64,000 nucleotides of DNA from Escherichia phage EcWhh-1, in the sequence record MH791409.1; one strand, 5' to 3'. A program made the translations under genes and the position numbers. Each line of letters begins with the position of its first letter. Position 1 is the first letter of the stretch. The notes below the pieces were generated by a model that made no database searches, had not been told where the DNA came from, and saw only the letters and a list, made by a program, of their open reading frames with translations. Of this stretch, positions 18,634-27,898 are shown in pieces.

Positions 18634-19807
18634 GGTCGCTCACAAAATTCATGTTTTCTAAATCGCTTTCGATGTCAGCAGCGCTTTGGGTATTTCCACC
18701 TAATTTAACAGAAACGTTCTTAGAGACACGAGAGTTAATAAGGTCGTTCACTGCATCGTCAACTTCTTTAATAGAATTAATTGCACCGAGCTTATACTTA
18801 TTCTCGATTGCTTCACGGAACGGAGCATGTTTAAACAGTGGTCCCCAGAACTCAACACAATCGGTAGCTTTAGCACGCCATGCTTTTTCTTCTTGAACCA
18901 TTTCACCTGTGGTTTCGTCAAGGAATGCACGATTATACCACCCAGCTTTAGGTTTCACGACAAAGCCGATATCAGTAGCCATTTCAAGCAATCCACTGAA
19001 TGGGTCGATACCGCCTTCAAAGTTAACGGTGATAGGGAACGTTGACTTCTCTTTAACCGTACGAGATTTCTCAGCCTTAAGTGTGAAGTCATAACCAGTG
19101 AGCTCAGTACCATCTTTAACCTGGCGTTTAGAGATAAAGAACACGGTAGAAGCAGAGTACAGAATACCAGTACCACCACCCATAATCTCTTTAGGATACA
19201 TTCCACCAATTTCCATAGCCGTGTGGTTAATTGCTACACAAGGGATATCCTTGATGGTCAGATAAGGTGTTACGATACGGAACAGAGATTTCAGTGACTT
19301 AGCACGAGTCATATCACCTACAACTTTCTCGTTCAAAGCATCTTCGGTTTCTTTCTTAGAAGCAGTGTTACCAATGGAGTCGATAAAGATAATAACCTTT
19401 TCGCCACGAGTAATTTCTTCTAACTGGTTGGTCATATCAACTTTAAGCTGTTCGACTGACTGGATTGGTGTATGAACCACACGTTCCAAATCAACACCCA
19501 TCGAACGGAAATAAGATTCTGAAGCACCGAACTCAGAGTCATAGAACAAGCAAATTGCGTCTGGATATTTCTTCATATATGCCGCAACCATAGTTAATCC
19601 AAACAACGTTTTAAAGTGTTTAGACGGTGCAGCAAAGATTGTCAAACCTGATTGTAAGCCTGCATTCAACGCACCACCCAATGCAATATTAAGCATAGGA
19701 ATACGAGTAGGAACTTCGTCACGACCATTAAACAATTTAGATTTGGTCAGGTCGGCAGTCATTTTAGAAGTAGAAGCTTTAATCAAACGGGATTTTAAAT
19801 CAGACAT
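18626..19807 (-). CDS. uvsX: UvsX RecA-like recombinase
   Basis: 393 aa. Walker A region AAPSKHFKT. T4 UvsX-like throughout. Synteny. Confidence 0.93.
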   Translation of the reverse strand: MSDLKSRLIKASTSKMTADLTKSKLFNGRDEVPTRIPMLNIALGGALNAGLQSGLTIFAAPSKHFKTLFGLTMVAAYMKKYPDAICLFYDSEFGASESYFRSMGVDLERVVHTPIQSVEQLKVDMTNQLEEITRGEKVIIFIDSIGNTASKKETEDALNEKVVGDMTRAKSLKSLFRIVTPYLTIKDIPCVAINHTAMEIGGMYPKEIMGGGTGILYSASTVFFISKRQVKDGTELTGYDFTLKAEKSRTVKEKSTFPITVNFEGGIDPFSGLLEMATDIGFVVKPKAGWYNRAFLDETTGEMVQEEKAWRAKATDCVEFWGPLFKHAPFREAIENKYKLGAINSIKEVDDAVNDLINSRVSKNVSVKLGGNTQSAADIESDLENMNFVSDHD

Positions 19808-19859
19808 TATATTTTTCCATAGGCATCATTATATTTTTCTCACGTTTTAAGATAGGGTA

Positions 19860-19887
19860 ATTATATCACTTCACAGCTACAGCATTA
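19860..19887 (-). promoter_or_regulatory. MotA-type middle promoter for uvsX
   Basis: taATGCTGTA (19887-19878), 12 nt, TATAAT (19865-19860). Confidence 0.5.
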
Positions 19888-20016
19888 CTTAATTCCTCGG
19901 TTGATAGCCTTATCGACTATCTTCCGAACTTCTCGTTTCTCGAGCCACACTAATAATAGCAAGCCTCCGAAAGAGAATAATAACAAACCTATAAAAAGCA
20001 ATAGAGGACCTAGCAT
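19885..20016 (-). CDS. single-pass membrane micro-protein, 43 aa
   Basis: Below cutoff. GAGGA SD. ATG 20016 overlaps the upstream stop by 7 nt. MLGPLLLFIGLLLFSFGGLLLLVWLEKREV... Confidence 0.45.
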   Translation of the reverse strand: MLGPLLLFIGLLLFSFGGLLLLVWLEKREVRKIVDKAINRGIK

Positions 20017-20903
20017 ACTACGTCCTCATAACGTGGCATTTCGTATTCAGAATGAATATTGGCACCGAAATAAATGAATTCAGCCAGACCAGGATGGAAT
20101 ACTAAACCTGGGTTCTCATGATAAATGATATGTGGTCTTGATTTCAGAATTTGATAATATTCAACCTTACTCGGTTTGAATTTAATAATCTCTACATCAG
20201 GACGATAGTCTTCGCGCTTAAATGAATCATTAGGGTCGGTGATATAAAGACGAGCACCTTCAGCGGCAGCTTGGTCTACAACTCTTTCGAATTGATAACA
20301 CTTATCCGAAATACGGAATGGATGGAAAATACCATCAATTTTAATAGGCGCTAGACCTTCAGAGTAACGCTCAATTACTGCAGGATTAATTACCTTTTGG
20401 TCTACAAAAATCTTATCAGAGGATGCACCTCGTGACATCAGGACGTCTTTCTGGCATTGATTCAAGACTGTAGTATAAAGTGAACGTTCAACTGAAGCCA
20501 CATCAATATCAATGAACTCGTCGATATAATAACGAGGAACTTCAGGGTCCATTGTGATATTAAAGTTGAATTGTACAGTATGAGCACCATCATAACCGGT
20601 GATATCGGTCACCAGTCCTGAGCAATCATAGTATTCGATTAGTGAATCGACTACAAACTCATTTTCAGACCAGAAATGTTTACGGGTTTCATAAGCATTT
20701 TCTTTATACCAAAGTGGTACGAAATTCAGTTCTGGGAATAATTCAATGCATTCTTTGATATCGCTCGAATTTCTAGGATAAGCCAGATAATCACCTGGAC
20801 GAGCACGATTTAAATGGAGTTGAAAATTACCGTCCTTAAGGACGGCATATTCACCTGTTTCGTAACTACGCATACTGAAAATAGGAACGATAAACAAACT
20901 CAT
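20010..20903 (-). CDS. orphan 297-aa protein in the beta-glucosyltransferase slot; candidate hmC glycosyltransferase
   Basis: ATGA-coupled to gene 42. Not alignable by eye to T4 beta-gt, except for a loose GT-B-like block IFHPFRISDKCYQFERVV versus T4 GGSFRSGQRESKMVEF. Confidence 0.35.
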   Translation of the reverse strand: MSLFIVPIFSMRSYETGEYAVLKDGNFQLHLNRARPGDYLAYPRNSSDIKECIELFPELNFVPLWYKENAYETRKHFWSENEFVVDSLIEYYDCSGLVTDITGYDGAHTVQFNFNITMDPEVPRYYIDEFIDIDVASVERSLYTTVLNQCQKDVLMSRGASSDKIFVDQKVINPAVIERYSEGLAPIKIDGIFHPFRISDKCYQFERVVDQAAAEGARLYITDPNDSFKREDYRPDVEIIKFKPSKVEYYQILKSRPHIIYHENPGLVFHPGLAEFIYFGANIHSEYEMPRYEDVVC

Positions 20904-21598
20904 TTCAGGAAACCTCGGACGTAGTCAAAATCACGTTCAAACACGTGTGCACTTACCATGGTGTGGGAATATGTACCTAAACCGACACCACACTGTTCAG
21001 CAATAAATGCCATCAGTTTACCCTGCAGATAGAAATCCAGCTGCATAACAACGGCGCAGTTTTGTGAACGCATATGAGTGTGTGCATACAGACGTCCATC
21101 ACGAATATAATATGTTACCGAATCGGTACACGGATATTCTAGGGATTCGTCAGAATCAAGGAGGGCTTGGTCTTGTTCTTGGAGAATTTGGAACACAACT
21201 CGTCTCGAGTTAGGCTTTTCTTTAAGCTCTTTAAGTAGGGCTGGGAGTTGGGCCACAATTCGAGGGCCATAGAAAGTGTTGAAGTTTGCAGGCAATACGT
21301 CACTTTTCGGCTTATCAATGAACTTAGCAACATTAGGGTATTCCTTAAATGCTTCGGCAGCGTCAGTACCACCAGAAATCATAAATTTCCAAAAGGATTC
21401 GGCATATTCATAACTAATACGATTGATACGTGGGTCGGTGAATTTATAGGTGCTTGCATCCAGTACTTCTACCGAAGCAGAACCAATTTCATAACAACGT
21501 CCGATACGAGAATCAACTGCAAACTGTGGAGCTTCCAGGATTTCTTCGTTCATTTGTTTAAATGCATTTTCAAAACTAACAGCGGTAATGTGTTTCAT
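20900..21598 (-). CDS. 42: thymidylate-synthase-family deoxypyrimidylate hydroxymethylase (divergent gp42)
   Basis: 232 aa. Conserved blocks: KPNSRR, YPCTDSVTYYIRDGRL, HMRSQN, SAHVF. Lies at the T4 gene 42 position, but is much more diverged from T4 gp42 than its neighbours are from their T4 counterparts. Confidence 0.7.
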   Translation of the reverse strand: MKHITAVSFENAFKQMNEEILEAPQFAVDSRIGRCYEIGSASVEVLDASTYKFTDPRINRISYEYAESFWKFMISGGTDAAEAFKEYPNVAKFIDKPKSDVLPANFNTFYGPRIVAQLPALLKELKEKPNSRRVVFQILQEQDQALLDSDESLEYPCTDSVTYYIRDGRLYAHTHMRSQNCAVVMQLDFYLQGKLMAFIAEQCGVGLGTYSHTMVSAHVFERDFDYVRGFLK

Positions 21599-22131
21599 TT
21601 ATTCACCTTATTTTCAATATATTCGTTCAGACGTTTTAATTCTACCATATCAACATTAAGCAAATTATTATGGCCGTCATGATTTAAGATTTTAAACACG
21701 TTTTCAAAACATGTTTCGTATTGCCGGATAGTTAGGTTGAACTCATCTTTGGTTAATTTAATAAGGTCGTCTTCGAAGTCTTCGTCTAATGGATTGCGAG
21801 TTAAAATAACCTCGATAACGTTAAATTCGGATTTAAACCCTTTCCAATCTTCCAGTTCTACATAAGGGTCCATTTCACCACGAAGGAATCCTGAGTAAAC
21901 AATATTACTTGGATAACCACGGTCAAGGATATAAACGAAATTAGGGTCTAAAAACTTATACAGAGTTTCAACTAAAGCCTTATCGTTATCAGTTCCTAAT
22001 GAAATACACTTGCCATTAATCTTTTTAGGAAAATCAATAAGGCGGTATTTCTTATTGGATAACAGATTTTTAATTAAAGTGGACTTCCCGGAATTATCCG
22101 GGCCGTCTATAACAATGATTTTTGGATTCAT
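21595..22131 (-). CDS. P-loop (thymidylate/dNMP kinase-like) kinase
   Basis: 178 aa. Walker A VIDGPDNSGKST, DRG motif. ATGA overlaps at both ends. Confidence 0.55.
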   Translation of the reverse strand: MNPKIIVIDGPDNSGKSTLIKNLLSNKKYRLIDFPKKINGKCISLGTDNDKALVETLYKFLDPNFVYILDRGYPSNIVYSGFLRGEMDPYVELEDWKGFKSEFNVIEVILTRNPLDEDFEDDLIKLTKDEFNLTIRQYETCFENVFKILNHDGHNNLLNVDMVELKRLNEYIENKVNK

Positions 22132-22511
22132 GGATGATAGGCCTTATAACTATCAAGAGTTCCTTCACGAACCATTTCTTTAAAGTGGTCAGGACGGATT
22201 GCTCGGTCATCGATGATAAAAGTATAACTCGGCTTATGCGTAAGCAGATTATGATATTTCAATCCAATCTTTTCAAGGTTCTTAACCAATGCAGGAACTA
22301 CTTCAACCAAGATTCGACCTGGGCCACATGAAGTCATGCCACGGGCAGTGAATAATGTAATCTCGTACCCTTCATCATAAAGCTTATTAATCATGGACAC
22401 CATTTCGGTGTCCGGTTTAAAGTTCTCATAATCACGGTCATGGTTCCAAATCGTGATTGTGTTATCGATATCAAAACATAAATGTGGCTTATTTTCTACT
22501 CGATGCGACAT
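22128..22511 (-). CDS. HAD-superfamily phosphatase
   Basis: Motif I FDIDNTIT, motif II LFTAR, motif III KPSYTFIIDDR. ATG 22511 is TAATG-coupled (alternative start ATG 22526). Confidence 0.6.
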   Translation of the reverse strand: MSHRVENKPHLCFDIDNTITIWNHDRDYENFKPDTEMVSMINKLYDEGYEITLFTARGMTSCGPGRILVEVVPALVKNLEKIGLKYHNLLTHKPSYTFIIDDRAIRPDHFKEMVREGTLDSYKAYHP

Positions 22512-24184
22512 TAAATTTTCTTCCATTGTTTGTGGAGTTCAGTAGAACCTGTAGGTTTATATTTTACACCAGTTTCCTGGTCAAGCAAAACCCACTTATC
22601 AGGACAACGAGTAATAATTTGAGCCGTGATAGGGTCACGAACTTCATCGACAAATTCACCAGTAATAAGCTTACGCTTATGAGGATGCCGCTTCAGCAGC
22701 ACACTCAGTTGATACAAACCGTTATAATAAGCACCCAGAGCTTTCAGAGGGTTATTCTTAAAGTAACCTGCCAGCGCCATCCAAATAACAGCAATCCAGA
22801 GCTTGTGCTTAAATGTGCACATAGGAATATCGTCTAAAGGCATAACCTTTTCGATATCAACGAATACACGAGTTCCGTTACGAGTTAATCCACCCCATAG
22901 AGGGTCTGAGTTAAATTTGTCATAGCCATCGATAGAATAAAGCACCTTAGCTTCATCATAAATCGCAGGGCCTTTAGAACTATTACCGAAATAACCACGT
23001 GGGTCGATGATTTTAATATCACCTTCGTCCGACAGCATAATATTACTGTAGTGCGGGTCGCCATGAATAAGTTGGTACGGTTCTTTATGTTCAGACAGAA
23101 TTTCTAGTGCATGGCGGAGAAGTTTTTCGGGGTCGCCTACTTTGAAATCGTTAACATAGGTAATGCCCTGTGGAGCAAAGCCTTCAATCAATCCGGCAAT
23201 AGAAGCATTACGAATAAGGACCTTGTCCAACACTTCTTTCTTAACATCGGAATACCATTGCTCATCGGACGGGTTATCGATAGTTCCACCGAATGAACGT
23301 AATGCACTAATGACCTTATAAACCATGAGGACTTTAGTTTCTTTGGACATAAACCGGTAGGCATCTGCCATGGTACGACCAAAGATACGTTCCATTTTAA
23401 TGAATTCGCCTGGAGAAAAGTCTACAATGCTAGGAACGAATTCAGAATCAATAGAATTATACCAATTGATTTCTTTAGATTGAATTTCTTTACCTAATTC
23501 GTTAGTTGGTACTTTAATAGCCAGATTCTCGGTGAACTCTAATTTATTAAATTCACGGTTAATTTCAGAATCTTCATGGGCCTTGGCAAGTTTCAATTTG
23601 TCACCGACATCAACTACAAAATCCAGTTTACGTTCAGTCAAATAGACCATTGAATCCAGGTTATCAGCAAGGTCTTCGCCATAATTAGAACGGTCGAAAC
23701 CTGTCCAATTGGCTACCTGATACAAACCAACTACACCGCCACCGGTACCAATTTCACGTAAGTACGGTTCTTCAAATGTAAAGCGACAGTCAGTTCCATA
23801 GGTATAACAATAGTCGTTACCCCATTCAACTTTATGACCGATAGGAATGATGTCACACCAGTTAAACAGGACATTATGGCCAATGATATCTTCGGCAATG
23901 CAATCGATAGCATGAGCTGAACCATTAGCAACATCAACGTTACGAATAGTGAATTTAGGCTTATCACCAGTAATCATGTTAATGGATTTAATATAGCCTT
24001 TAACGAGGTCGTTAAATTTGCTGTGAATAACCAGAATAATTTCATCTGATTGGTTACTATACAAATCATACAAATGTTTTAATACCGTATGTTGTTTGTA
24101 GTTAACCAATACCTTTGGGATTTCGTTAGTAATTGGATACAACCGTGAGCCAAGACCTGCGCCTAAAATAACAACCTTTTTCAT
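22511..24184 (-). CDS. bifunctional sugar-1-phosphate nucleotidyltransferase / APH-choline-kinase-like kinase
   Basis: Start at ATG 24184 (GAGGAA SD). N-terminal VILGAGLGSRLYPIT...PKVLV (GxGxRL NTase). C-terminal LIHGDPHYSNIM...IIDPRG (Brenner HGDxxxxN plus Dxx). Confidence 0.65.
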   Translation of the reverse strand: MKKVVILGAGLGSRLYPITNEIPKVLVNYKQHTVLKHLYDLYSNQSDEIILVIHSKFNDLVKGYIKSINMITGDKPKFTIRNVDVANGSAHAIDCIAEDIIGHNVLFNWCDIIPIGHKVEWGNDYCYTYGTDCRFTFEEPYLREIGTGGGVVGLYQVANWTGFDRSNYGEDLADNLDSMVYLTERKLDFVVDVGDKLKLAKAHEDSEINREFNKLEFTENLAIKVPTNELGKEIQSKEINWYNSIDSEFVPSIVDFSPGEFIKMERIFGRTMADAYRFMSKETKVLMVYKVISALRSFGGTIDNPSDEQWYSDVKKEVLDKVLIRNASIAGLIEGFAPQGITYVNDFKVGDPEKLLRHALEILSEHKEPYQLIHGDPHYSNIMLSDEGDIKIIDPRGYFGNSSKGPAIYDEAKVLYSIDGYDKFNSDPLWGGLTRNGTRVFVDIEKVMPLDDIPMCTFKHKLWIAVIWMALAGYFKNNPLKALGAYYNGLYQLSVLLKRHPHKRKLITGEFVDEVRDPITAQIITRCPDKWVLLDQETGVKYKPTGSTELHKQWKKI

Positions 24185-24244
24185 TATCTGTTCCTCAAGT
24201 GAATGTAGGTACATTATACACTATTTTTAATAAATTTCTATTGC

Positions 24245-24745
24245 TTAAATCTTATCTTTACCGTATTCCATGCACTGTTCTACTGCAGCAGGCACTTTGG
24301 TCTTAAGCTTGTTGATTTGTTTCTTATAATCACGAGCCTTATCGAAGCTCTCGGTTTCGAGCATTTCGTAATAACGAGCCTCGTGGACAGAAATCTGTAG
24401 ATTGATATGGTTTACACACATGGCATACAGTTTCTGCTTTTTGTACAAATCATCTTGGCGCTTCATTTCTGCCTGGTGTTTGGCTAGTACCGCTTCACGC
24501 TTAGACTCTTGTTCACGTTGGAATTCGATTTCCCTTTGAGCATATTTTGCACAGTTATTACCACATTGATTATTAGCTCGGGTGTACACAAGTCCAGAAC
24601 CGGCACGGAATTTCATTTCGCCGTCGAATTGTTTCTGTTCAGCTGCGATACGAGCTTTACCAACTTCATCAGCAGAAACTGCATCACCGTATTGGACTGC
24701 GCAACCTGATAGGAGCATACTCATTGCGATAATTAACTTTTTCAT
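24245..24745 (-). CDS. predicted lipoprotein, 166 aa
   Basis: MKKLIIAMSMLLSG|C lipobox. Coiled-coil-like, charged mature part. Confidence 0.6.
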   Translation of the reverse strand: MKKLIIAMSMLLSGCAVQYGDAVSADEVGKARIAAEQKQFDGEMKFRAGSGLVYTRANNQCGNNCAKYAQREIEFQREQESKREAVLAKHQAEMKRQDDLYKKQKLYAMCVNHINLQISVHEARYYEMLETESFDKARDYKKQINKLKTKVPAAVEQCMEYGKDKI

Positions 24746-24752
24746 AATATCC

Positions 24753-24890
24753 TCAATTAAAACAGTTATACTTAATTTGTGCTATAAGAATAATCCATCC
24801 CATGATTAATGTTGGAATCATTGGAGGAATTGCCACTGCCCAATAAACGGTAAAGGCAGCCATTATAAGAAATAAAATAATTATCTTCAT
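24753..24890 (-). CDS. membrane micro-protein, 45 aa
   Basis: Below cutoff. ATGA overlap with the imm stop. MKIIILFLIMAAFTVYWAVAIPPMIPTLIMGWIILIAQ... Confidence 0.45.
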   Translation of the reverse strand: MKIIILFLIMAAFTVYWAVAIPPMIPTLIMGWIILIAQIKYNCFN

Positions 24891-25123
24891 TGTTTAACGA
24901 TAATGATTTGTGCGTTTGATTTATGTTCAGCGACTATAGCCCAGATTAAAGCCACTACCCAACCAATCATCGTCCACCCTAACAGGAGATTAAGGAAGAA
25001 GATTCCGACATTGCTACGAGTGCCTCGCAGAAGGGCCAGAATCCATGGTAAAAAGTAACCAATGAACATAATAACCAGAGAACCGAATCCTAAAACACCA
25101 GCACTAACGATTAAAGCTTCCAT
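24887..25123 (-). CDS. imm: superinfection immunity protein Imm-like
   Basis: Start at ATG 25123 (GAGGAAAT SD). Two TM segments. LNLLLGWTMIGWVVALIWAI matches the Imm_superinfect signature. Lies at the T4 imm position. Confidence 0.7.
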   Translation of the reverse strand: MEALIVSAGVLGFGSLVIMFIGYFLPWILALLRGTRSNVGIFFLNLLLGWTMIGWVVALIWAIVAEHKSNAQIIIVKQ

Positions 25124-25154
25124 TGTAATTTCCTCTAAGTAGTTGATAGGAAGG

Positions 25155-25184
25155 ATACTACCACGTTCCTTGTGGTATGTAAAC
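25155..25184 (-). promoter_or_regulatory. early-type promoter
   Basis: GTTTAC (25184-25179), 18 nt, TAGTAT (25160-25155). Lies right after the gene 43 stop. Confidence 0.5.
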
Positions 25185-25186
25185 AC

Positions 25187-27898
25187 TTAAAAGTCGAACA
25201 TATCAAATAATGTTGCTTTTTTCTCGTAGTCGATTTTAGCAGACTCGGTAAAACCAGTTAGAGGCTTGATAAAGGTCTTTTGGAACAGTACGTTGTAGTC
25301 CATCCAACGGAGGACTTGGTCACGAATCTGAACTGGGAGTTCAATACCTGACGGCCATGCCATACAGGCTTCACCAAACGGGTTGCCTTCTTTAAGTGGC
25401 AGTACATATACCTTTTCACCGTCAACGATACGAGGCATAGTCAAATCACCAGCAGAAGCACGCATGTAAGCTAAGCAACCTTTGATGTGGTACGGGCATT
25501 TAGAACCAGGGAATCCGCCTTCATTATATTTCTCGATGTTGTTAGCACTGGATACTGCTGCAATGCTTACATAGTCCAGTTCGTTAAATTCCTTATTAAA
25601 CTGTTTGAAATATTCTTGCAAAGACGCCTCGCCTTCTTGAAGCATACGACGGATACATTCTTTCAGAGCTTTCTGAACAGCTTTAGGTGTACTTGATTTC
25701 TGAGTTTCGAGACCCATGATTTTCAAGTGTGGTTCGGCATAACGAGTGCCTTCCATGTCCCAAACGTTCAGTGCATAACGTTTCTTGCCTGTCCAGAATC
25801 CACCAAGACCTTTAGAACCAAGTGGAGGACCTGCGATAGCTTCTCGGTCCATGAACATCAAGTGTTGTTTGTTGTTCATGTATTCGCACATCTCACGGAA
25901 GCCTGCATCAATAGTCGGTTCCATACGTTCACGTGCAAATTTATCTAAGAAGTCGACCCAGTGGTTAGTGTCACGGAATTTATCTTCGCCTACTTTATTG
26001 ATGATTGCATCTGCCTTAACATAAATGGAGTCAGTATCACCATAGAGCACGAACTTCTGGTTTTCAGTCTTACACACGCTATTCAGATATTCGTTAACCT
26101 TACGTTCAATCCATTGGAGAGCCATTTGACCAAACAGTGTGATTGCAGTTGCGTTCCTGAGGTCGTAATAACGAAACCATACGTTACCAAGTGCACCATA
26201 AAGGGAGTTGATAAGCAACTTACGGTTAATCTGAGCAGTGTTACCTGCAACTTCGGTACGTTCAGCTCTGAACAACATTTCTTTTAAAGAAGAGGCCGAC
26301 AGTTTTTTAATCTGGGCTTTTATTTCATCAGAGAAGTCGAAACGGTAATCGATATCCAGTGGACTATCAACAGACAGATTAGGATTTTCCAATGCTTCTT
26401 TAATTAACTCGCCATTACGTTGGGCTGCAAGCATATAACCTTTATGTTCTTTACGTTGTAAGAACACCTTCGTGATTTCTGTAGGAATCACACCATCACG
26501 GTCTTTATAGTACATCATGCCGTTAGGAGAGCAACTGTAGGTGTCGCTAGGACGCGGAGCAGTTCCGGCAATATATTCATGTATCGGTGCGTTGGCGAAT
26601 GTGCCTGCGATGGTCTCTGGGCTTATATTCACTTGTCGAATGATACTCGGGTACAGAGATGTAAGGTCGAAACTCATTACATATTTGTACGCGTTAGGAA
26701 TAGGTTCCTTAACGAAAGCACCTGGATAAGGTTGAACCGCATGCGATTTGGCCTGAGGAATAACTTTACCCTGTTCTTTAAGGCTATTAAAGATAATAGC
26801 GTCCCAAGTCTTAATTGGACTGAACACCGACTGAATCTGCATCTTAGCATAATAACCCATGTCCAGACTAAGAAGAATGAACTGGCGTTTCATATCAATC
26901 TGCACAACACGATATACGTCGATAATGTTATAGGAAATATATCGTTGGTGGTTCGTCTCACGTAACTTGGAGATAGGACCATCATATTTCAACTTACCTA
27001 CTTTCAATTCATATTCAGAAACATAATCCAGAGAATAAGAAGGCTGGTTAGTAAAGCTGAATTTTTTATAAAGGTCGATATAATCCAGAACAGAGATACC
27101 GAACAGTGTAATAATTTCGCGAACACCGTACATATTCTCGATAACTTTAACACGAGTCTTACGATGTGGGCTTAATCGCTTAGCAGTGTTCTCACCAAAC
27201 AGATTTTTCAGACGGTTATAAACGTATGGCACGTCAAATGATTCAACGTTCCATCCAGTCAAAATCACAGGAGTTTTCTGTTGCCAGAAATTCAGATACT
27301 CAAGCATCATTTCTTCTTCAGAATTAAACGGAAGATAAACGATTTTGTCAATGATTTCTTGTGGAACTTCGTCACCACCTTCGTCTTGGAGTTTCTCAGC
27401 GATTTTAATCGACCACTCTTCGACCGTACCATAAGGTGAAACTAAAAGGTCAAATACATAGAATTTATCATCAATCGAGTCGTAGTGAGTAATGGCATCG
27501 ATAGGATGTTTAGCCTGGGCAGGTTCAGGGAATCCATCAGGGGATGTTACCTCGATGTCGAAGTTAGCAATACGAATCTTGGAAGAATCATACTTGATTT
27601 CTTTACGATAGGTATCAGACAAATAGGCTAATTTATAGTCGTCCATACCAAGGGCTTCGAGACCCATATCGTCCATGCGCTTCATCCACTGAGAAGCATC
27701 GCGCATTGAATCGAATTCTTTCTTAACACAACCCTTACCGTAGATGTCAATATATTTTACGGCTTGCTCTGGGTTAGCGTGCATAAACATTGTAGGCTTG
27801 TAAGGAACTTCACGACTACGTTCGTTACCATTTTTATCGATGTAACGTTCGAGAATATTATCACCGATTTGTTCGACTGTCAAATAGAATTCTTGCAT
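25187..27898 (-). CDS. 43: DNA polymerase (family B)
   Basis: Start at ATG 27898 (MQEFYLTVEQIGD, AAGGAA SD). Very close to RB69/T4 gp43 as recalled (FDIEV exo I, SLYPSII, YGDTDS). Confidence 0.97.
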   Translation of the reverse strand: MQEFYLTVEQIGDNILERYIDKNGNERSREVPYKPTMFMHANPEQAVKYIDIYGKGCVKKEFDSMRDASQWMKRMDDMGLEALGMDDYKLAYLSDTYRKEIKYDSSKIRIANFDIEVTSPDGFPEPAQAKHPIDAITHYDSIDDKFYVFDLLVSPYGTVEEWSIKIAEKLQDEGGDEVPQEIIDKIVYLPFNSEEEMMLEYLNFWQQKTPVILTGWNVESFDVPYVYNRLKNLFGENTAKRLSPHRKTRVKVIENMYGVREIITLFGISVLDYIDLYKKFSFTNQPSYSLDYVSEYELKVGKLKYDGPISKLRETNHQRYISYNIIDVYRVVQIDMKRQFILLSLDMGYYAKMQIQSVFSPIKTWDAIIFNSLKEQGKVIPQAKSHAVQPYPGAFVKEPIPNAYKYVMSFDLTSLYPSIIRQVNISPETIAGTFANAPIHEYIAGTAPRPSDTYSCSPNGMMYYKDRDGVIPTEITKVFLQRKEHKGYMLAAQRNGELIKEALENPNLSVDSPLDIDYRFDFSDEIKAQIKKLSASSLKEMLFRAERTEVAGNTAQINRKLLINSLYGALGNVWFRYYDLRNATAITLFGQMALQWIERKVNEYLNSVCKTENQKFVLYGDTDSIYVKADAIINKVGEDKFRDTNHWVDFLDKFARERMEPTIDAGFREMCEYMNNKQHLMFMDREAIAGPPLGSKGLGGFWTGKKRYALNVWDMEGTRYAEPHLKIMGLETQKSSTPKAVQKALKECIRRMLQEGEASLQEYFKQFNKEFNELDYVSIAAVSSANNIEKYNEGGFPGSKCPYHIKGCLAYMRASAGDLTMPRIVDGEKVYVLPLKEGNPFGEACMAWPSGIELPVQIRDQVLRWMDYNVLFQKTFIKPLTGFTESAKIDYEKKATLFDMFDF

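Follow-up and report, generated by a model that had tools for sequence, protein, structure and literature searches.

Arabinosyl-5-hydroxycytosine has been shown in the virion DNA of phages RB69, DLP3, NP and others. Through this modification T4-like phages become resistant to restriction enzymes, and their sensitivity to other defence systems changes; such hypermodification bears on the choice and engineering of therapeutic phages. AfhE of phage HY126 is described as both a kinase for D-arabinose 5-phosphate and a pyrophosphorylase for UDP-D-arabinose, and AfhF as a Mg-dependent phosphatase (PMC13326640, citing experiments on HY126). The AfhE results (He et al. 2026) are given here as that citing paper relays them; there, the kinase and pyrophosphorylase activities are reported for HY126 AfhE only, and the phage phosphatase is matched to GmhB-type enzymes. 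5-Hydroxy-dCMP synthase function has been shown for RB69 gp48 and DLP3 gp80, an arabinosyltransferase role has been proposed for proteins of the RB69 gp46:47 type, and the Dhakaviruses are among the genera listed with a syntenic arabinosylation cluster (PMC13326640). Counterparts of AfhE are RB69 ORF53_52c (gp52:53), DLP3 gp82 and Thanatos TH1_060. The Thanatos protein is essential for phage propagation and, when purified, did not convert xylose 1-phosphate to NDP-xylose, whichever NTP was supplied (PMC12838424), a negative result that is compatible with a narrow sugar specificity.

We found that a 557-amino-acid protein of a JS98-like Dhakavirus is, as judged by sequence, the orthologue of AfhE and RB69 ORF53_52c. 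It is colinear with HY126 AfhE over its full length (43% identity, 59% positives, 557/562 aa, E = 2e-142), and residues 1-557 match positions 1-559 of 559 in phrog_4098 (E = 1e-267). Closer members of its branch are found in Marfavirus (80% identity) and Providencia phage PSTCR6 (71%); Thanatos TH1_060 is 43% identical. The protein is the second most diverged of its module relative to HY126, compared with 62-81% identity for three of the other four. A homologue is present in 367 phage records of the collection. The original prediction had called such a fusion unusual for a T-even phage, which is fair relative to T4 itself and, given those 367 records, does not hold otherwise. It had also recognized the two fused domains correctly, but the counterpart enzyme was already published, and the value of our analysis for this gene is a correct annotation.

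The open reading frame predicted for the fusion is real, and its true start is ATG 24184. The longest form of this minus-strand frame, which ends at 22511, starts at 24214 and would encode 567 aa. We chose the shorter form because GAGGA precedes its ATG at Shine-Dalgarno distance (Table 1), the upstream ATG has no Shine-Dalgarno sequence, and the starts of homologues agree. HY126 AfhE begins with MKKAVILGAGL, and the near-identical gene of phage UP19 (99.8% nucleotide identity over the coding sequence) is annotated with the same start. The 567-aa start, which lies within a TATAAT, was rejected on the missing Shine-Dalgarno sequence and on the homologues, which begin at MKK. A scan for promoters and terminators from 19800 to 25300 gave site counts that were not above shuffled expectation; we therefore list a single site, which lies just upstream of the gene, as weak. 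In public records the gene is called 'hypothetical protein', and the name 'phosphoheptose isomerase' is given to its partner.

Table 1. Features of the AfhE orthologue and of the genes that follow it
Feature	Coordinates	Strand	Description and basis
AfhE orthologue, whole gene	22511..24184	-	557 aa + stop; open reading frame, homology to HY126 AfhE
Sugar-1-phosphate nucleotidyltransferase domain, N-terminal	23570..24184	-	about residues 1-205
APH/choline-kinase-type kinase domain	22691..23569	-	about residues 206-498
C-terminal extension, small, beta-rich	22514..22690	-	~59 residues (499-557); predicted model and homologue alignments
Shine-Dalgarno GAGGA	24192..24196	-	8 nt upstream of ATG 24184; sequence read directly
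Candidate sigma-70-like promoter TAGAAA-16-TATAAT	24213..24240	-	10/12, the region's best site; weak evidence
HAD-type phosphatase, orthologue of AfhF/RB69 gp51	22128..22511	-	127 aa; 62% to HY126 protein
P-loop nucleotide kinase, thymidylate-kinase-like, RB69 gp45 orthologue	21595..22131	-	178 aa; 38% to HY126 protein
Thymidylate-synthase homologue, 5-hydroxy-dCMP synthase	20900..21598	-	232 aa; 81% to HY126 protein
DNA arabinosyltransferase candidate, RB69 gp46:47 orthologue	20010..20903	-	297 aa; 67% to HY126 protein

Sequence, profiles and fold all bear out the two domains, well past anything that chance would give. The motifs on which the prediction had drawn are present: KKVVILGAGLGSRLYPIT...PKVLV at residues 2-27 of the nucleotidyltransferase, and LIHGDPHYSNIM (residues 372-383) and IIDPRG (residues 392-397) in the kinase. 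Both domains scored above the curated gathering thresholds of Pfam. NTP_transferase (PF00483) reached 33.8 bits (cut-off 21.2) at residues 3-100, an alignment that covers only profile positions 1-97 of 245; the remainder of the domain was confirmed by fold. APH (PF01636) reached 25.5 bits (cut-off 23.2) at residues 346-417 (profile positions 140-212). An AlphaFold2 model of the 557-aa protein was confident, with a mean pLDDT of 91.7 and a pTM of 0.88. Foldseek matches agree with both assignments, and the nearest structural relatives in the fold comparison were AmgK/MurU and LicA/LicC. Foldseek against the PDB found no close relative, and a search for a solved structure of an AfhE-type protein gave only weak matches to the nucleotide-binding loop (LicC, HddC, RmlA).

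The catalytic residues of both domains are conserved. The nucleotidyltransferase carries the GxGxRL...PK loop and metal-binding aspartates; G10, R14, K24, D111, D192 and D195 are among its residues that are invariant in 38 homologues. The kinase carries the beta3 lysine, the helix-C glutamate, and the Brenner motif with its downstream aspartate (HGDxxxxN and IDPRGYFG), and its residues invariant in the same 38 homologues include K224, E238, HGD376, N381 and D394. The C-terminal extension was modelled with lower confidence (pLDDT 72-87), with short strands between residues 503 and 556. It is found mainly in the closest members of the family, mostly from T4-like phages, and is conserved in HY126 AfhE; in bacterial and distant homologues the match stops at about residue 490-500.

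The AfhE orthologue is the first gene of a five-gene operon, in a cluster flanked by DNA polymerase and uvsX; overlaps of 1-4 nt join the five genes. The start codon of the HAD phosphatase gene overlaps the stop codon of the AfhE orthologue (TAATG). The translation of the phosphatase gene contains FDIDNTIT, a DxDxT motif, and its match to the capsule biosynthesis phosphatase model TIGR01689 is partial (E = 1e-14). The nucleotide kinase gene, which overlaps the phosphatase gene by 4 nt, matches phrog_761, thymidylate kinase (E = 1.5e-39). Crystal structures of proteins nearly identical to the 5-hydroxy-dCMP synthase are available (PDB 9iqu, 9iqc and 9ir2; E = 1.7e-126), and the arabinosyltransferase candidate matches phrog_3891 (E = 1e-158).

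We suggest, with a probability of about 80%, that the AfhE orthologue makes the activated sugar donor for arabinosylation of the phage DNA in five steps. The scheme joins the domain folds, conserved catalytic residues, orthology and operon context found here to substrates, a step order and a nucleotide taken from the literature on homologues. First, D-arabinose 5-phosphate would be drawn from the host isomerases KdsD and GutQ. The C-terminal APH-type kinase would then use ATP to phosphorylate C1, giving arabinofuranose 1,5-bisphosphate, and the HAD phosphatase from the next, translationally coupled gene would strip the 5-phosphate. The N-terminal RmlA/MurU-type nucleotidyltransferase would join arabinofuranose 1-phosphate and UTP to give UDP-D-arabinofuranose, the nucleotide being that of the homologues and not one read from the sequence. 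Finally, the 297-aa glycosyltransferase would move the sugar onto 5-hydroxycytosine in phage DNA. The 5-hydroxy-dCMP made by the thymidylate-synthase homologue would reach the triphosphate through the operon's nucleotide kinase.

We infer that the Dhakavirus enzyme acts as HY126 AfhE does, providing the donor with which 5-hydroxycytosine is arabinosylated. That the phage encodes the synthesis of an NDP-sugar, with arabinose 5-phosphate as a candidate substrate, had been anticipated, and it fits the published activities of a homologue with 43% identity, as PMC13326640 relays them. Direct passage of the sugar from kinase to transferase had been expected as well. The published scheme, as given in that paper, contradicts this: a separate HAD phosphatase (AfhF) acts between the two, so the two activities of the fusion are not consecutive.

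The fused steps would be consecutive if the order were swapped, with the HAD enzyme dephosphorylating arabinose 5-phosphate to arabinose, the kinase making arabinose 1-phosphate and the transferase acting next. The enzymes closest in structure, AmgK/MurU and LicA/LicC, do act consecutively on unphosphorylated substrates, but the kinase-first scheme has its own parallel in the GmhA/HldE/GmhB heptose pathway. Free arabinose is, moreover, mostly pyranose, and a 5-phosphate would lock the furanose seen in the DNA adduct. The literature can be cited for both orders. Table 1 of PMC13326640 labels RB69 and DLP3 proteins 'dephosphorylates Araf5p to Ara' and 'phosphorylates Ara to Araf1p', whereas the text of that paper, where it cites the HY126 experiments, has the kinase first and the phosphatase second. 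We consider the swapped order unlikely.

We found no isomerase gene with the cluster. The RB69 arabinose-5-phosphate isomerase had no tblastn match with E < 0.1 in the 64-kb window (the whole stretch of DNA analysed) or in the whole UP19 genome, and at the same E value there was no match in either to the U32-like protein gp50 or to the second arabinosyltransferase gp3 of RB69. The isomerase was also absent from the Marfa locus, and from the sampled genomes of the Dhakavirus/Marfavirus branch; RB69, HY126 and DLP3 have one adjoining AfhE. A phage isomerase would appear to be an accessory and not a catalytic feature of the system. Because the Dhakavirus lineage lacks its own isomerase, the host probably supplies the arabinose 5-phosphate, which E. 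coli itself makes with KdsD and GutQ.

These absences could also mean that the Dhakavirus/Marfavirus branch uses another pentose, or a donor other than a UDP-sugar. Besides the isomerase, the branch lacks an RB69 gp3-type second transferase, and Dhakavirus also lacks RB69 gp50. The identity to AfhE is only 43%, compared with 81% for the base-hydroxylating enzyme; on the other hand, all family-invariant residues are kept, and identity to the HY126 counterparts is 62% for the phosphatase and 67% for the glycosyltransferase. A host that makes arabinose 5-phosphate also argues for the same sugar. Our literature search found no Dhakavirus biochemistry or DNA chemistry. The Thanatos authors interpret their adduct as deoxypentose (PMC12838424), but the Dhakaviruses are placed with the arabinosylating phages in PMC13326640. 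We regard a change of sugar or nucleotide as quite improbable, and arabinose with UTP as the preferred reading.

It is very improbable that the protein is a LicCA-type kinase for choline or another small alcohol joined to a cytidylyltransferase, with CDP-choline or some related donor as its product in place of a sugar nucleotide. The sequence match is weak (E = 0.001) and confined to the nucleotide-binding loop, the protein is orthologous to AfhE, its operon is shared with 5hodCMP synthase and a DNA glycosyltransferase, and its relatives are fused to or adjoin sugar-phosphate isomerase domains. Membership in the LicCA or LicA-LicC group was rejected, as we found neither closeness to LicC/LicA nor a lic-type context (choline transporter, phosphocholine transferase). 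That the protein is itself a DNA glycosyltransferase with a GT-A-like N-terminal domain, an earlier idea for RB69 ORF53 and Thanatos TH1_060 that the Thanatos authors left open (PMC12838424), is hardly credible and was rejected: the fold matches are nucleotidyltransferases with the GxGxRL/PK loop, the cluster has separate GT-B-type transferases, TH1_060 gave no xylose transfer to DNA in vitro (PMC12838424), and AfhE is reported, in the account relayed by PMC13326640, to be a pyrophosphorylase.

Relatives of the donor-making fusion are found in bacteria and metagenomes. Homologous fusions are present in hundreds of bacterial genomes, often adjoining isomerase and phosphatase genes, and an SIS gene like the RB69 isomerase adjoins the fusion in 42 of the 82 non-reference loci examined. 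Some metagenomic proteins (890-1011 aa) contain HAD, SIS, nucleotidyltransferase and kinase in one chain. These fusions and the adjoining SIS genes tie the four activities together independently of the phage operon. The HAD phosphatases of the bacteria and of the phage fall into different HAD subfamilies; tblastn found no link between the two, and BLASTP found no similarity between the phage phosphatase and the Robertmurraya neighbour. A general literature search, not aimed at this family, found no characterization of it.

The probable dependence on a host isomerase, the four-activity metagenomic fusions and the bacterial homologues go beyond the published account, and the first of these and the bacterial family are the points to follow up. 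We offer one joint proposal about them, which is rather doubtful as a whole. The Dhakavirus/Marfavirus branch would be streamlined and wholly dependent on host KdsD/GutQ, and its sugar or nucleotide specificity could have shifted. The phage enzyme would have branched off from a large family of bacterial proteins in which a nucleotidyltransferase is fused to a kinase and has an SIS isomerase and a HAD phosphatase as partners, in some cases all in one polypeptide. A bacterial family with the same four activities points to the origin of the phage module and, if the proposal is true, could represent a route by which bacteria widely make an NDP-pentofuranose for glycans.

Among known systems, MtnK (5-methylthioribose kinase), NahK, maltokinase and glucosamine kinase are single-domain enzymes with other substrates, and the likeness is at the level of fold only. 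LicA, LicC and LicCA differ in using choline and CTP, in having no phosphatase step and in having no link to DNA modification. AmgK (an anomeric MurNAc/GlcNAc kinase) and MurU (a MurNAc-1-phosphate uridylyltransferase) of Pseudomonas are separate proteins that catalyse consecutive steps on an unphosphorylated hexosamine; the similarity to MurU is remote (23.6 bits with the NCBIfam MurU model, cut-off 370). FKP of Bacteroides fragilis and AFKP80 of Leishmania are, like the phage protein, bifunctional salvage enzymes whose N-terminal part is a pyrophosphorylase and whose C-terminal part is an anomeric kinase, and AFKP80 makes an NDP-D-arabinose. In contrast to the phage protein, their kinase is of the GHMP type, their product is a GDP-linked pyranose and their steps are consecutive. 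The ADP-heptose pathway (GmhA-HldE-GmhB) follows the same logic as the proposed scheme: it begins with an SIS isomerase, an anomeric kinase then takes a sugar that already bears a distal phosphate, a HAD phosphatase strips that distal phosphate, and nucleotidyl transfer comes last. There too, kinase and transferase are fused, in HldE, although their steps are not consecutive. The heptose enzymes have unrelated folds, with a ribokinase-like kinase and a cytidylyltransferase-like transferase in HldE, and they act on a heptose to give an ADP-linked product. Compared with AfhE of HY126, the Dhakavirus protein belongs to a diverged branch and its nucleotide-kinase gene lies elsewhere in the cluster, but in both proteins the nucleotidyltransferase domain precedes the kinase domain, and the two are colinear over their full length, share the same invariant residues and have the same neighbours: an AfhF-type phosphatase, a 5hodCMP synthase, an arabinosyltransferase and a nucleotide kinase.

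We found that the 557-aa protein is a genuine fusion of a nucleotidyltransferase and an APH/choline-kinase-type kinase, and the original prediction is supported. Its quoted motifs are all present (residues 2-27, 372-383 and 392-397), and the profile search and structure prediction proposed with it bore it out. Pfam NTP_transferase matched residues 3-100 (33.8 bits; cut-off 21.2) and Pfam APH matched residues 346-417 (25.5 bits; cut-off 23.2). An AlphaFold2 model built from a 38-sequence alignment was confident throughout (mean pLDDT 91.7, pTM 0.88), and Foldseek agreed with the domain assignment. Across the 38 aligned homologues, which share 30-81% identity with the query, invariant columns include G10, R14, L15, P23, K24, D111, D192, G194, D195 and K198 in the nucleotidyltransferase domain, and K224, E238, H374-G375-D376, N381 and D394-P-R-G-Y-F-G in the kinase domain. 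These include the catalytic sets of both superfamilies.

The longest form of the reading frame would begin at 24214 (567 aa). We rejected that ATG, which lies inside a TATAAT and lacks a ribosome-binding site. Three things favour the ATG at 24184: a GAGGA is found 8 nt before it, Escherichia phage UP19 has a 99.8% identical gene likewise annotated as 1674 nt, and the HY126 homologue begins MKKAVILGAGL.

Coordinates of the features discussed. L handles denote other genome pieces or loci, numbered separately from the window.
Feature	Location	Strand	Remarks
Fusion	22511-24184	-	'hypothetical protein' in most public records
C-terminal extension of fusion, ~59 residues (499-557)	22514-22690	-	short strands, pLDDT 72-87; kept in HY126 AfhE, matched by closest homologues only
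127-aa HAD phosphatase	22128-22511	-	misleadingly called 'phosphoheptose isomerase' in RefSeq, PHROGs and UP19
232-aa 5-hydroxy-dCMP synthase	20900-21598	-	misleading public name 'thymidylate synthase'
166-aa protein	24245-24745	-	polymerase-to-fusion interval; lipoprotein-like N-terminus MKKLIIAMSMLLSGC; phrog_1754 (unknown function)
45-aa ORF	24753-24890		RB69 gp54 homologue, 53% identity
Four-activity metagenomic fusion	L009 10001-12775		
SIS gene and fusion homologue, 315-kb contig JACCDQ012122952.1	L010 7297-9665		SIS gene directly upstream; homologue about 32% identical
Example bacterial or archaeal loci	L080 5977-8451		
	L084 6001-10720		
	L027 5986-8475		
	L069 6001-8099		

Earlier papers already describe this enzyme family, what it does and that Dhakaviruses carry it. 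In RB69, ORF053c and ORF052c proved to be a single gene; its 561-residue product has a proposed role in UDP-arabinose synthesis (Thomas et al. 2018, PMC6024577). The DNA of RB69 and DLP3 carries arabinosylated 5-hydroxycytosine, not 5-hydroxymethylcytosine; 5-hydroxy-dCMP is the product of a thymidylate-synthase homologue, and Dhakaviruses are among the genera listed with the syntenic cluster (Lee et al. 2026, PMC13326640). The homologue in Shewanella phage Thanatos, TH1_060, is essential for propagation (PMC12838424).

The five operon proteins were compared with those of the RB69-like phage HY126 (PP658200.1). Divergence was uneven inside the one operon. The fusion was 43% identical to AfhE over its full length (E 2e-142) and the 178-aa P-loop kinase 38% identical to its counterpart, and the other three fell at 62-81%: 62% for the 127-aa HAD protein (AfhF), 67% for the 297-aa protein (arabinosyltransferase) and 81% for the 232-aa thymidylate-synthase homologue. 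The last also matches PDB 9iqu, 9iqc and 9ir2 (E 1.7e-126). The HAD protein carries a DxDxT motif (FDIDNTIT), and TIGR01689, a model for capsule-biosynthesis phosphatase, matches it in part. Homologues of the fusion occur in 367 phage records, nearly all matching at full length, and phrog_4098, labelled 'unknown function' in PHROGs, covers it end to end.

The fusion gene is 99.8% identical in DNA sequence to that of UP19 and 97-99% identical to those of IME281, JS98 and JS10, all Dhakavirus (Straboviridae, Tevenvirinae). The locus runs DNA polymerase, imm-like gene, 45-aa ORF, 166-aa predicted lipoprotein and fusion, followed by the 127-, 178-, 232- and 297-aa proteins and then uvsX. Between 24184 and 20010, neighbouring genes of the five share 1 nt (TAATG) or 4 nt (ATGA-type) where they meet head to tail, which indicates a single, translationally coupled operon. 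The nucleotide-kinase gene lies between phosphatase and synthase here, and next to uvsX in RB69 and HY126.

The lineage differences and the wider family are the only parts that may merit further work. In RB69, the polymerase-to-fusion interval is occupied by arabinose-5-phosphate isomerase and gp54. Neither the window nor the complete UP19 genome contained a homologue (tblastn, E < 0.1) of RB69 gp55 (the isomerase), gp50 or gp3 (a second arabinosyltransferase). The isomerase matched 276 phage records by tblastn, versus 367 for the fusion, and none of 60 sampled matches was a Dhakavirus. Klebsiella phage Marfa has a fusion with 80% identity, and there the gene directly follows DNA polymerase, with no isomerase between them. 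Because the Dhakavirus lineage lacks the isomerase, we infer that the Dhakavirus/Marfa branch takes arabinose 5-phosphate from host KdsD/GutQ. The single transferase gene predicts that the Dhakavirus base is probably mainly mono-arabinosyl.

Among 1.84 billion cluster representatives searched, 374 clusters held fusion homologues at E <= 1e-10, most matching residues about 3-495. Lengths of 890-1011 aa are seen in about 20 of the best 150 clusters, and in these the fusion lies in the C-terminal half. Pfam placed HAD and SIS domains N-terminal to the fusion in all three metagenomic proteins scanned from the 90%-cluster search (P0067, P0081 and P0093), each predicted to carry all four pathway activities in one chain. 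The genes around P0067 are of the GT25/GT11/GT2 glycosyltransferase type.

Scanning one prokaryotic genome per species gave at least 294 loci with full-length homologues (about 25-31% identity) in bacteria or archaea, including Lachnospiraceae, Gastranaerophilales, Akkermansia, Treponema and cyanobacteria. They keep the block IDPRGYFG...YD.AK.YY...YD.FN. In the bacterial and distant homologues listed, the match stops at about residue 490-500. An RB69-isomerase-like SIS gene adjoins the homologue in 42 of 82 non-reference loci; the thymidylate-synthase homologue, transferase and nucleotide kinase were found in none of the 82. Four loci were inspected by eye, and in each the cluster includes a small HAD phosphatase belonging to a subfamily other than that of the phage enzyme. 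These neighbours and the four-activity chains independently support a functional link among the four activities. The bacterial family probably serves a glycan nucleotide-sugar pathway, and our results suggest that the phage module derived from one. The contig L010 is jumbo-phage-like, with Fapy-type DNA glycosylase, UvrD-like helicase and gyrase/topoisomerase genes nearby, which suggests that the pathway also works in unrelated large phages.

The best-supported reading applies the published AfhE scheme to the Dhakavirus orthologue; substrate, nucleotide and order of steps are inferred for this phage. The kinase domain would phosphorylate C1 of arabinose 5-phosphate, the separate HAD phosphatase would then take off the 5-phosphate, the transferase domain would form UDP-arabinofuranose, and the operon glycosyltransferase would place the sugar on 5-hydroxycytosine in DNA. 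Alternatively, the phosphatase might act first and the kinase on free arabinose, the order in the older labelling in Table 1 of PMC13326640. [quoted passage not shown] A 5-phosphate would hold the sugar as a furanose, in agreement with the furanosyl adduct. On the kinase-first scheme, the phosphatase acts between kinase and transferase, so the fused activities would be steps one and three. NDP-sugar synthesis, as originally predicted, fits the published scheme and the orthology; direct passing from kinase to transferase does not.

ADP-heptose synthesis proceeds through GmhA isomerase, HldE kinase, GmhB phosphatase and HldE transferase. HldE likewise fuses a kinase and a transferase that catalyze non-consecutive steps, although its folds are unrelated to those of the phage enzyme.
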